Positions 22,722 to 32,715 of a stretch of DNA of 64,000 nt are shown here, piece after piece. The stretch is from the NCBI GenBank assembly GCA_048886685.1, contig JBHLKM010000011.1:47115-111114 (forward strand). Direction: 5' to 3'. Made by a program: the position numbers and the translations under genes. The stretch is from Candidatus Hodarchaeota archaeon. GTDB lineage: Archaea; Asgardarchaeota; Lokiarchaeia; Sigyniarchaeales; SOKP01. Position 1 is the stretch's first letter; the number at the start of each line of letters is the position of its first letter. The notes below the pieces were generated by a model that worked only from the letters and a program-made list of their open reading frames with translations, searched no databases and was not told where the DNA came from.

Positions 22722-23513
22722 TTAATCTAATTCTTTTCTTCTTACAAGTTCTTTTATAAAAAAAGATGCGACAATCTCAGCATAAGTACCGGGACCAAAA
22801 CCAGCGTCGTATCCTAATTCTTTTGCTAATTCATTACTTATTCTGGCACCACCACAGATGAGAATTACTTGATCTCTTATTCCTTCAGCCTCTAATAGTT
22901 CAACTAATTCGGTTAGGTTTTTCACATGAATATCTTTTTGTGTGACTGTTTGTGAAACTAATAAGACATCTGCTTTTAGTTCTATTGTTCTTTTGACAAA
23001 CTCTTCATTTGAGACTTGGCTTCCTAAATTATAAGTTTCTATCATTTCATATTGTTCAAGACCATGATGTCCAGTAAAACCTTTCATGTTAATAATTGAA
23101 TCAATTCCTACTGTATGAGCATCTGTTCCTGTTGATGCTCCAAGAATAACTAACTTACGTCCTATCTTTTCTTTTATGAAATTATTAATATCTTCTTTAG
23201 ACATAACATTTACTTCTACAGTTTCTACTTGAATTTTAGTATAATCGATTGTATGAATTGACTTTCCATAAATTACAAAAAATGTGAATCCTTTGTCTAG
23301 CGCAGAATGATATGCTATTTCAGGATCTTTCAACCCCATTTTTTTTACAAGTTCTTTAGCTGCTTCAATTGATTTTTCATCATTATCAACTGGAAGTGTA
23401 AAACTTAATTGTACCTTTCCATCGTTCATTGTATCTCCATAAGGTTTAATTCTTGTTATATCAAGATTCTTATCAAAAGTTTCCTTTCCAGTTGGATTTG
23501 GCCCGCCTCCCAT
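22722..23513 (-). CDS. kamE: Beta-lysine 5,6-aminomutase beta subunit (B12-binding)
   Basis: KPYGDTMNDGKVQLSFTLP, DAHTVG (DxHxxG), PLP lysine in NMKG, SQTVTQ. Confidence 0.95.
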   Translation of the reverse strand: MGGGPNPTGKETFDKNLDITRIKPYGDTMNDGKVQLSFTLPVDNDEKSIEAAKELVKKMGLKDPEIAYHSALDKGFTFFVIYGKSIHTIDYTKIQVETVEVNVMSKEDINNFIKEKIGRKLVILGASTGTDAHTVGIDSIINMKGFTGHHGLEQYEMIETYNLGSQVSNEEFVKRTIELKADVLLVSQTVTQKDIHVKNLTELVELLEAEGIRDQVILICGGARISNELAKELGYDAGFGPGTYAEIVASFFIKELVRRKELD

Positions 23514-23514
23514 T

Positions 23515-25104
23515 TTAGTTCCCTCCTTTTGTTAATTCTCTAATCATAAGTTCGATAAATGGATTAAAATAATCTTTCTCTTTCTTAATTACACCATCTA
23601 ATCCTTTACCACCATCTAACGGTCTTTTAATTCCAGCGAAGATTCCTTTTTCAATAGTTCTAAACAAACCTTGTTCTTCGATTTCCTTTAATAAATCATA
23701 AGCCTTGTTAAGAACATTATCGACTCTTCTTTGCATTATTCCCCCACTCTTAAATACTATTTCTTCACTGATAGACTTCATATTATTGAACACATAACGA
23801 GCATTTTCAATAGATAATGCTCTATCTGACATAAAGGGCGTATGTATTGCTTCTGTTAACATACCAAGGAGGTGAATTTTTTGATTCGTCATAATAGTAA
23901 TCATATTAAATAAAGCATCTTGAATATGACCTTTGAATATATTTCCTGTCATATATTTAGTTGGAGGCATGTATTTAAGTGGAGCATTAGGAAAAATCTC
24001 TCGTGTCATTTGAGCTTGTGCTAATTCATATAAAAATCCGTTTTCTAAATCAGGATTCATCTCAAATGCATGACCTAATCCCATTTGTTCTTCTCTTAAT
24101 CCTGCGAGTAAAGCAAATTGTTCATTAATAAATTCAGAAGCAAGAACTGTGTGGGCTGCTTCAAATGCATCGGCTGTAGTTAAGTAGTTATCTTCTCCAG
24201 TATTTATGATTACACCAGCATAAGCATTTATCATTCTTGAAAAGTACTGGTCAATAATAGTTCTTTTCATATTAATATCACGGAATAAAATCCCATAAAG
24301 AGCATCGTTTAACATCATATCAACCCTTTCAAAAGCACCTATAGCAGCAATTTCCGGCATACATAAACCAGAGCAATAATTAGTTAGTCTTATATATCTC
24401 CCTAATTCTTCACTCACTTCATCTAAAGCCTTTCTCATAAGTCGAAAATTTTCTTGAGTAGCATATGTTCCGCCAAATCCTTCTGTTGTTGGACCAAAAG
24501 GAACATAATCGAGTAAACTTTGCACTGTAGATCTAATAACAGCAATTACATCTGCACCTTGTTTTGCTGCAGCTTGAGCTTGAATAATATCCTCATAAAT
24601 ATTTCCTGTGGCTACAATAACATATATTAAAGGCCCTTCCTTATCACCATATTTTTTAAGCAATTCTTCTCTCTTTTTTCTATTTTGAGATATTAGTAAT
24701 AATGATTCTTGAGCAATGAGATTTACAGTTGCTTCGATCTCGGATCGATCTTTTAATGGTAATTGGGTTAAATCTAATTCTTCCTTAGTTACTTTTTCTG
24801 CTATCTCTTGCGGTGAAAGACTTGTATGCAATATAGCATTACCAATATAAGTAGCAGCACCAACATTAAGACCATTTCCCTTTTTGATATTTTCAACAAC
24901 AACATTAGCTAAAGGAACATCAAATTCATCTACACCATCTATACCAAATAATCTGCAGACAGTTCTTTCAATTGTGGTAGTAGTATGTTGATCGATGAAT
25001 TTCTGGGTATCTAACGCAATGACTTTCGCTGCTTCTCTTGCTTTCTTAACAATTGAAAAATCTAAATTCAATTTACTTTTTCGGTTTATTTCTTTTTCCT
25101 CCAC
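23515..25104 (-). CDS. kamD: Beta-lysine 5,6-aminomutase alpha subunit
   Basis: YVIVATGNIYED, GADVIAVIR, NYCSGLCMPEIA, NTGEDNY, KYMPPTK, MLTEAIHTP. Confidence 0.95.
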   Translation of the reverse strand: MEEKEINRKSKLNLDFSIVKKAREAAKVIALDTQKFIDQHTTTTIERTVCRLFGIDGVDEFDVPLANVVVENIKKGNGLNVGAATYIGNAILHTSLSPQEIAEKVTKEELDLTQLPLKDRSEIEATVNLIAQESLLLISQNRKKREELLKKYGDKEGPLIYVIVATGNIYEDIIQAQAAAKQGADVIAVIRSTVQSLLDYVPFGPTTEGFGGTYATQENFRLMRKALDEVSEELGRYIRLTNYCSGLCMPEIAAIGAFERVDMMLNDALYGILFRDINMKRTIIDQYFSRMINAYAGVIINTGEDNYLTTADAFEAAHTVLASEFINEQFALLAGLREEQMGLGHAFEMNPDLENGFLYELAQAQMTREIFPNAPLKYMPPTKYMTGNIFKGHIQDALFNMITIMTNQKIHLLGMLTEAIHTPFMSDRALSIENARYVFNNMKSISEEIVFKSGGIMQRRVDNVLNKAYDLLKEIEEQGLFRTIEKGIFAGIKRPLDGGKGLDGVIKKEKDYFNPFIELMIRELTKGGN

Positions 25105-31452: not shown

Positions 31453-31461
31453 AGAATTTTT

Positions 31462-32715
31462 TCACTTGGTCAATTTTTTGCATTCAATTAATGATTCATT
31501 AATCATATCTGCTGCATAATCTAGATGATCATTTGTATGCCGATAACAAATATAGCCATGATGAAAGGGTTGGAGAAAAACTTTACGGCGAATTAGCTGT
31601 CTGTAAAATTCTTCTCGTAATTTTTTATATAAAAGATTGGGGTCACGCTCAAATGTAATATATGGCATCCAAGGTGCTCCAGAGAATACACATGGGATAT
31701 CGCTTTCTTCGATCAAGTCTATTACTTTTTTTGCGAATTCATTTCCTTTTTTACTTATATTCTCTAACACTTTTTCACGTTCTAAAATCTCTATTGTTTT
31801 AAGTGATGCAATTTGTGCTAAACTATTAGGGAAAAAAGTTGAACTAAGAAACACATCCTCGACTAATACATCCATAACCTTTTGTTTCCCACCAAGGAAA
31901 CTAATCGGGTAACCATTTGCCATTGCCTTTCCAAAAGCAGCAAGATCAGGTATAACATTAAAAAATTTTTGGGCTCCTCCGAGGTCAAATCGAAAACCAG
32001 TACGAATTTCATCAAACATCAATAGTGACCCATAATCATTAGCAATTTTTCGAAGACCTTGTAGAAATCCTGAGTCTGGCATCACTACTTTATGACCTCC
32101 TGGATGATTAACGGGTGTAGTGATAATAGCTGCTACATCATCACCGTACTTTTTCATCAAATCTTCCACTTGATTAAGGTTGTTAAATTCAAATTCATGC
32201 ACATCTTCATATAATTTTTTAGGTATCCCTCCATCAAGTTCATGACCAATAGCCCAATCATGCCATCCATGATATCCACATCGGAGTATTTTAAAACGTT
32301 TTGTAAATGCTCGAGCTACTCTGATTCCTGTTGTTGTTGCATCAGAACCAGTTTTGACAAAGACCATCCTTTCACAACATGGAATTAATGATTTCAATTT
32401 TTGGGCTAGCTTGTTTTGAACTGGTTGGGTCAATGACATACAAAAACCCTTATCTTTAATTTGTTTAATAACCTCATTATCGATTTCTTCTTCTCTATGT
32501 CCAATTATTATTGGTCCATAAGCACAGAGCATATCAATATATTCATTCCCATCAACATCAATAACCTTTCCACCCTTCGCATTCTCAAAAAAAATAGGAT
32601 ATTCACCTTCTACAAAATTACTCGGGCGTCTTATTCCCAAAATTGCTCCCGGTATTAATTCAAGTGCTTCTTCATAAAGTTTAAAAGTATTTTTTAAAGG
32701 TAATTTTTTAGACAT
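31462..32715 (-). CDS. kat: 3-aminobutyryl-CoA aminotransferase (class III PLP)
   Basis: GIRRP.NFV.GEYPIFF, LCAYGPIIIG, KTGSDATT, GYHGWHDW, FGKAMANGY, FLSSTFFPNS, GAPWMPYITF, QPFHHGYICYRH closely match Cloacimonas Kat as I recall it; first gene of the kce-kdd-kam operon. Confidence 0.85.
   Translation of the reverse strand: MSKKLPLKNTFKLYEEALELIPGAILGIRRPSNFVEGEYPIFFENAKGGKVIDVDGNEYIDMLCAYGPIIIGHREEEIDNEVIKQIKDKGFCMSLTQPVQNKLAQKLKSLIPCCERMVFVKTGSDATTTGIRVARAFTKRFKILRCGYHGWHDWAIGHELDGGIPKKLYEDVHEFEFNNLNQVEDLMKKYGDDVAAIITTPVNHPGGHKVVMPDSGFLQGLRKIANDYGSLLMFDEIRTGFRFDLGGAQKFFNVIPDLAAFGKAMANGYPISFLGGKQKVMDVLVEDVFLSSTFFPNSLAQIASLKTIEILEREKVLENISKKGNEFAKKVIDLIEESDIPCVFSGAPWMPYITFERDPNLLYKKLREEFYRQLIRRKVFLQPFHHGYICYRHTNDHLDYAADMINESLIECKKLTK

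Follow-up and report, generated by a model that had tools for sequence, protein, structure and literature searches.

We found a cluster of nine genes in an Asgard archaeon that is in all likelihood a lysine fermentation operon in which a putative 3-aminobutyryl-coenzyme A (CoA):2-oxoglutarate aminotransferase, Kat, takes the place of the ammonia-lyase Kal. The cluster lies in a stretch of 64,000 nucleotides (nt) of contig JBHLKM010000011.1 (positions 47,115 to 111,114) in the Candidatus Hodarchaeota archaeon assembly GCA_048886685.1; we refer to this whole stretch as the window. The predicted operon is complete and is carried by a member of the Lokiarchaeia, and it thereby extends a known bacterial variant of the pathway to archaea by horizontal transfer; the chemistry is not new.

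The nine open reading frames (ORFs) are consecutive on the minus strand (22722-32715), separated, from the kamE end, by intergenic gaps of 1, 35, 108, 87, 37, 21, 12, and 9 nt. They read from kat, the first gene, through a CoA-transferase gene, kce, a methyltransferase gene, and kdd to kamA, kamB, kamD, and kamE (Table 1). Equivalogs were called with NCBIfam models that carry curated cut-offs, and six of the nine genes exceed theirs. The core of lysine fermentation (KamA, KamDE, Kdd, and Kce) is present throughout as equivalogs, in a single strand-consistent cluster. A first-pass annotation, made from the letters of the window, had described the same nine identities, order, and gaps, and the ORF list and the six equivalog models agree with it. 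The window lies on contig C11; the genome as a whole comprises 4.42 Mb in 47 contigs and is 100% complete by marker genes.

Kat was defined as a HemL-like class III aminotransferase that replaces kal (EC 2.6.1.111; Perret et al. 2011, PMC3149608). Two members have been assayed: CLOAM0809 of Candidatus (Ca.) Cloacimonas acidaminovorans, which lies beside the thiolase CLOAM0810, and DIG1_60031 of a digester Bacteroidetes, which sits where kal would be in a lysine cluster. These enzymes are ~65% identical to one another and acted only on CoA esters (PMC3149608). With its relative in Ca. Cloacimonas sp. P0357 the window protein shares 63.5% identity, and with that in Bacteroidetes ADurb.Bin139, 64.8%. 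When one genome was scanned per species, Cloacimonadota, Bacteroidales, Elusimicrobiota, and Bdellovibrionota were found to have relatives that are 62-67% identical, and several further phyla have relatives at 48-59% identity. Among representatives clustered at 50% identity, a profile-free search returned a sole full-length look-alike (57%, 541 bits), the next full-length match falling to 43% (329 bits). The Kat family therefore appears to be discrete, with full-length identity no higher than 43% beyond its own cluster of representatives.

The positions of the protein point the same way. The window protein has the aspartate that binds pyridoxal 5′-phosphate (PLP) and the Schiff-base lysine (D235 and K263), neither of which varies within the Kat clade or the outgroups. 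It also keeps all 15 of the residues that never vary in the Kat clade but are rare in the outgroups, and Asgard Kats have few clade-specific residues of their own (M117 and G206). Phylogenetic analysis of 116 sequences groups the Asgard Kats into one clade (n = 26; Shimodaira-Hasegawa-like approximate likelihood ratio test [SH-aLRT], 100), which joins first Elusimicrobiota and Bdellovibrionota (95), then Cloacimonadota (91), and then the digester Bacteroidales (99). The 99-supported clade that holds the Asgard, Cloacimonadota, and digester Bacteroidales Kats comprises 46 rows of the tree. The other class III aminotransferase paralogs of the window genome are placed with the outgroups, and those compared are 27-32% identical to Kat.

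Gene linkage adds a further line of evidence. When the nine window proteins were used as tblastn queries, bacterial Kat homologs (45-69% identity) were found to adjoin kce, kdd, and kamADE in several phyla. The homolog in Ca. Syntrophosphaera (Cloacimonadaceae) lies 13 nt from an acetyl-CoA C-acetyltransferase gene, reproducing the published CLOAM0809/0810 layout, and a Bacteroidales homolog heads a kat-kce-kdd-kamA-kamB-kamD-kamE cluster that matches Fig. 2B of PMC3149608. In the window genome, kce, kdd, and kamADE stand alongside the aminotransferase gene and kal is missing: the Kal model NF052388 has no match anywhere in the genome, and tblastn with an Asgard Kal query finds nothing at the window locus. 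Identity, phylogeny, conserved residues, and linkage thus uphold the proposal, made in the first-pass annotation, that the aminotransferase at 31462-32715 is Kat in an operon without kal, and the absence of kal extends to the whole genome. Very probably this gene encodes a real Kat.

The predicted enzyme shares with the Kats of Cloacimonas and the digester Bacteroidetes its class III PLP type, its HemL-like annotation, and the replacement of kal in a lysine gene set; with the Bacteroidetes cluster it also shares the order kat-kce-kdd-kamA-kamB-kamD-kamE. The bacterial clusters differ from the window operon in several respects. The archaeal host, the separate Asgard clade, the absence of KamC, and an inserted methyltransferase gene set the window operon apart, as does an inserted family III CoA-transferase gene, the last in the window sublineage only.

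The resemblance to HemL (glutamate-1-semialdehyde aminomutase) raises the question of whether the gene could serve tetrapyrrole or vitamin B12 synthesis and be a chance neighbor of a B12-dependent pathway. By name, the top NCBIfam and Protein Data Bank (PDB) matches are indeed glutamate-1-semialdehyde aminomutases, and the public annotation reads 'glutamate-1-semialdehyde aminotransferase'; the fold is shared as well. However, the protein scores only 270.7 bits on TIGR00713 against a cut-off of 527.3, falls in a separate clade, shows the low full-length identity outside its own cluster given above, and has kce linked to it in most Kat-bearing genomes (see below). The best hemA match in the window genome reaches 22 bits against a cut-off of 210, and since the genome lacks hemA, it lacks a source of the HemL substrate. 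No protein in the window genome exceeds the hemL cut-off. We consider a HemL identity extremely improbable.

Two more HemL-like paralogs are encoded in this hemA-less genome (G000:C2:171420-172493 and G000:C17:14378-15649). They score 291 and 263 bits on the hemL model, both below its cut-off, and are 27-32% identical to Kat. To date, the Kats of these archaea carry the annotation 'glutamate-1-semialdehyde aminotransferase' or that of an 'aspartate aminotransferase family protein'.

A different concern is that a bacterial fragment was misbinned or misassembled into the archaeal metagenome-assembled genome (MAG). Lysine fermentation is typically a bacterial pathway, and the MAG has an estimated contamination of 8.4%. 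Against this, the 526- and 55-amino-acid (aa) genes upstream of the operon and an ornithine-type aminotransferase gene downstream recur in >15 independent assemblies. Single-contig genomes that carry the operon include one of the same genus (G189, 3.34 Mb), with the same flanks, and another of 4.36 Mb (G135). GC content is uniform over the region (0.30-0.35, compared with 0.26-0.39 for the whole window), and Kat orthologs 64-92% identical to the window protein occur in 61 genomes of one archaeal order. The nearest locus (L010) has the same nine genes and a Kat that is 92% identical. A join of this kind has, to our minds, next to no chance of being the explanation: the conservation of flanking genes in many assemblies, closed genomes included, supports an Asgard host, and the first-pass annotation had named a misjoin as one finding that would undo its reading.

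That annotation had also proposed that the operon came from bacteria, and for Kat the gene tree agrees, the Asgard clade being nested four levels deep among bacterial sequences. We suggest that the archaeal order acquired Kat once, from bacteria, probably together with the whole operon. Since the Asgard Kats are monophyletic, the data fit a history in which the gene was acquired once and relatives then exchanged the head gene repeatedly. The tree of the operon backbone alone is silent on the direction of transfer, because the sampled bacterial outgroup operons are all Kat-linked.

We surveyed 398 genomes of the window's phylum for Kat and Kal. Kat orthologs occur in 61 of them, all in two families of one order, and Kal occurs in 28. 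True Kce (above the cut-off) is present in 82 genomes, all of the same order as the Kat carriers. The Kal route published for the Asgard isolate MK-D1 is thus the minority form in the order, and Kat is the commoner one (61 vs. 28 of 398). Only one of the 61 Kat-bearing genomes has both enzymes (G138, locus L105); there kat and kal are 4 kb apart, and kal, kat, and kce fall within 6 kb. Kce lies within 10 kb of Kat in 55 of the 61 genomes, at a median start-to-start distance of 1.3 kb. In at least four of the remaining six, Kat is truncated or at a contig end, and in one (G269) Kce is truncated and lies ~10 kb off on the same contig.

The 43 Asgard loci that were fetched share a single operon layout: 526-aa gene, 55-aa gene, kat or kal, (CoA-transferase), kce, (methyltransferase), kdd, kamA, kamB, (kamC), kamD, kamE, where brackets denote optional genes. 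Kat-type and Kal-type operons are interleaved in a tree of concatenated Kce, Kdd, KamA, and KamD from 42 loci, in which well-supported branches force at least 11 changes, and in several cases near-identical backbones bear different head genes. The tree shows interleaving and not frequencies, because the loci were picked by head gene. After entry into the order, Kat would have alternated with Kal at the same slot of the operon.

One tentative interpretation, which we hold to be possible but doubtful as a whole, is that kat and kal are interchangeable head cassettes that toggle the operon between a redox-balanced, butyrate-forming Kal mode and a more oxidative Kat mode, with the methyltransferase performing an Asgard-specific step on a pathway amine. 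If so, the cassette would set a lineage's degree of dependence on a hydrogen-consuming partner.

Lineage-specific insertions recur in the operon (L092, L097, L103, L109, and other Asgard loci). The inserted genes encode 587- to 588-aa proteins without a family match, in the kamA/kamB interval, as well as a D-2-hydroxyacid dehydrogenase, a reductive-dehalogenase-like Fe-S protein, and a geranylgeranyl reductase family protein.

Membership in the Kat family may be granted and the substrate still be another. The enzyme could act on a different β-aminoacyl-CoA, or on a free β- or ω-amino acid (such as β-lysine, 3,5-diaminohexanoate, or 3-aminobutyrate), with 3-aminobutyryl-CoA then handled by an unrecognized enzyme. 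A large deltaproteobacterial/Syntrophaceae subclade of the family (54-57% identity) has no lysine genes in the fetched flanks, so family membership alone leaves the substrate unfixed; Perret et al. noted the same absence for strain NaphS2 (PMC3149608). The window genome also encodes several further class III aminotransferases. On the other side, the Asgard clade is nested among lineages with assayed members that take CoA esters only, apart from the deltaproteobacterial subclade, and all clade-specific residues are retained. Moreover, kat fills the exact slot of kal in sister operons, which indicates the same substrate. We therefore judge another substrate to be unlikely and favor a Kat acting on 3-aminobutyryl-CoA.

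The deltaproteobacterial subclade is one of several points that weigh against this reading. Proxies (Cloacimonas sp., Syntrophosphaera, and digester Bacteroidales MAGs) stand in for CLOAM0809, DIG1_60031, and their lineages, and the bracketing of the Asgard clade by characterized lineages is a bracketing by these proxies. KamB is missing its ATPase partner KamC, which bears on reactivation of the 5,6-aminomutase. Finally, the end products, whether acetate and H2 or butyrate, are predicted from gene content.

KamC (NF052383) is absent from both the operon and the window genome, leaving the reactivase pair with KamB only. The sole KamC-like match in the genome is a true MutS (G000:C7:134664-136001, L001), which scores 925 bits on the MutS model. 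None of the 51 genomes of the window's genus has KamC, and in the sister family it is retained between kamB and kamD (L104:12015-13613). The 588-aa ORFs found in the kamA/kamB interval of some relatives were considered as a KamC substitute and dropped; they match no family and bear no relation to the 526-aa protein upstream of the operon.

Two genes of the operon stand outside the known pathway. The methyltransferase is a conserved member of the operon and the more notable of the two. Its nearest solved structures are the N,N-dimethyltransferases DesVI (3bxo; E = 9e-43, full length) and TylM1 (3pfg; E = 9e-38), and its Atlas look-alikes are generic class I methyltransferase clusters only. It resembles these dTDP-amino-sugar enzymes over its full length and shares with them the class of S-adenosylmethionine (SAM)-dependent class I amine N-methyltransferases; unlike them, it has no sugar-nucleotide pathway context. 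Orthologs occur in 51 of the 152 genomes of the order, all of them in one family (f1), and in the loci compared the gene directly follows kce in Kat-type and Kal-type operons alike. None was found in 76 bacterial loci, and among 80 related loci only the near relative L010 has it.

The family III CoA-transferase is a lineage-specific addition. Its nearest solved structure is a succinate-hydroxymethylglutarate CoA-transferase (SUGCT-like; E = 5e-116). Out of 152 genomes of the order, nine have an ortholog; in seven it lies between kat and kce, and these seven are one subclade of the window's genus, and in two (G245 and G247) it is located away from the operon. Its inclusion as a general part of the pathway does not hold up, since it is found in the operon of only seven of the 61 Kat-bearing genomes. 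We also considered the enzyme as a general replacement for AtoAD and rejected this, given its restriction to one subclade and the three AtoAD-like pairs in the genome.

The steps of the proposed pathway follow from family membership. KamA would convert L-lysine to β-lysine, and KamDE, with KamB as reactivase subunit, would convert β-lysine to 3,5-diaminohexanoate. Kdd would then form 3-keto-5-aminohexanoate by oxidative deamination, with production of NAD(P)H. As far as 3-aminobutyryl-CoA and acetoacetate, the route from lysine does not differ from that of the classical cluster of Fusobacterium nucleatum and Clostridium sticklandii. The classical route proceeds from there through Kal to crotonyl-CoA and butyryl-CoA, with a butyryl-CoA:acetoacetate CoA-transferase, AtoAD (cited in PMC3149608). 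In the window genome, in contrast, Kat would give acetoacetyl-CoA directly, by transfer of the amino group from 3-aminobutyryl-CoA to 2-oxoglutarate with formation of glutamate, and the AtoAD-like genes are elsewhere in the genome. Glutamate dehydrogenases (GDHs) encoded elsewhere would regenerate 2-oxoglutarate, thiolases would cleave acetoacetyl-CoA, CoA-transferases would reactivate acetoacetate, and an ADP-forming acyl-CoA synthetase would form ATP. If lysine were oxidized all the way to three acetates, two NAD(P)H would be left over for each lysine, to be disposed of as H2 or formate; alternatively, part of the acetoacetyl-CoA could be reduced to butyrate via Hbd, crotonase, and Bcd/Etf.

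The gene content of the genome accommodates either outcome. We counted at least 10 thiolases, six Hbd, 25 crotonase-family genes, at least 13 acyl-CoA dehydrogenases, three EtfAB pairs, and the AtoAD-like pairs already mentioned; a crotonase-Hbd pair and Bcd-EtfAB clusters are present, as are GDH genes and two [NiFe] hydrogenase large subunits. The alpha subunit of an ADP-forming acyl-CoA synthetase is encoded in the window itself (46195-47607). The first-pass annotation had proposed a fermentation without the crotonyl-CoA electron sink and had suggested searching the genome for kal and thiolase. That search returns no kal and the thiolases listed here, and the proposal itself is not sustained: given the thiolase, Hbd, crotonase, acyl-CoA dehydrogenase, and EtfAB genes, reduction of acetoacetyl-CoA to butyrate is a route the cell may still use.

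By textbook stoichiometry, each lysine passing through the Kat route together with GDH would yield two NAD(P)H, and as many as two acetyl-CoA would be available for ATP formation. Substrate-level ATP would then be about two in the Kat mode, compared with about one for the redox-balanced Kal route. Since the Kat route would leave two NAD(P)H, a sink for H2 or formate would be to its advantage. It is important to know which fermentations give off reducing equivalents because Asgard archaea serve as models for a syntrophic, amino-acid-fermenting ancestor of eukaryotes.

Lysine degradation in Asgard archaea has itself been reported, the kamA, kamDE, kdd, kce, and kal genes of MK-D1 having been tabulated already (Imachi et al. 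2020, PMC7015854, Supplementary Table 4). The MK-D1 set has in common with the window operon the phylum, KamA, KamDE, Kdd, and Kce, and a kce that adjoins the gene acting on 3-aminobutyryl-CoA. It differs in that MK-D1 has Kal and a MutS2-like gene (KamC) between kamD and kamB, whereas the window genome has Kat and neither Kal nor KamC. A full-text literature search turned up no account of Kat in Asgard archaea; the sole archaeal mention it returned is a putative Kat in Thaumarchaeota without the pathway. The novelty claimed for the operon therefore stands for Kat in Asgard archaea but not for lysine degradation as such. What is new here is that Kat is commoner than Kal in the order, that at least 11 Kat/Kal switches are indicated, that a methyltransferase is conserved in the operon, and that KamC is missing.

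Table 1. Genes of the lysine fermentation operon and its upstream flank, with positions in the window
Gene or product	Position	Strand	Matches and remarks
kamE	22722..23513	-	NF052385, 398 bits (cut-off 280); PF16554 and PF02310 matches
kamD	23515..25104	-	NF052384, 927 bits (cut-off 600); PF09043, 905 bits
kamB, lysine 5,6-aminomutase reactivase subunit, without KamC partner	25140..26174	-	NF052386, 418 bits (cut-off 210)
kamA, lysine 2,3-aminomutase (radical SAM)	26283..27521	-	TIGR03820, 606 bits (cut-off 525); PF04055 and PF12544
kdd, L-erythro-3,5-diaminohexanoate dehydrogenase	27609..28652	-	NF052381, 271 bits (cut-off 200)
Class I SAM-dependent methyltransferase, DesVI/TylM1 amine N-methyltransferase type	28690..29406	-	Generic Pfam methyltransferase domains only
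kce	29428..30252	-	NF052387, 433 bits (cut-off 382); PF05853, full length
Family III (CaiB/BaiF) CoA-transferase, accessory	30265..31452	-	PF02515, full length, 467 bits; no equivalog above cut-off
kat, putative 3-aminobutyryl-CoA:2-oxoglutarate aminotransferase, 417 aa	31462..32715	-	PF00202, 181 bits; class III aminotransferase
Conserved 55-aa cysteine-rich protein (10 cysteines), possible regulator	32956..33123	+	Divergent from operon head
Conserved 526-aa protein, upstream operon flank	33166..34746	-	No Pfam or NCBIfam match; synteny marker

The two genes upstream of the operon are conserved in place. By tblastn, 18 further Asgard loci, of both Kat and Kal type, encode the 55-aa protein in the corresponding place (50-89% identity), and 17 further Asgard loci have the 526-aa protein where the window has it (62-86% identity). 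An Rfam search of positions 21000-36000 gave no riboswitch or other RNA element at E ≤ 0.1.

Elsewhere in the window, the ORF at 17902-18282 has no Pfam match at E ≤ 1e-5, and a SNF2-type helicase (61551-63944) resembles DrmD of DISARM, with 207 bits, below the cut-off of 610. A second catabolic neighborhood occupies 39977-50300. It includes an aldehyde:ferredoxin oxidoreductase, an Fe-alcohol dehydrogenase, a 3-hydroxyacyl-CoA dehydrogenase, a CobW/MeaB-like GTPase, the acyl-CoA synthetase alpha subunit, an ArgE/DapE deacylase, and a 4-aminobutyrate aminotransferase that scores above its cut-off (49020-50300).

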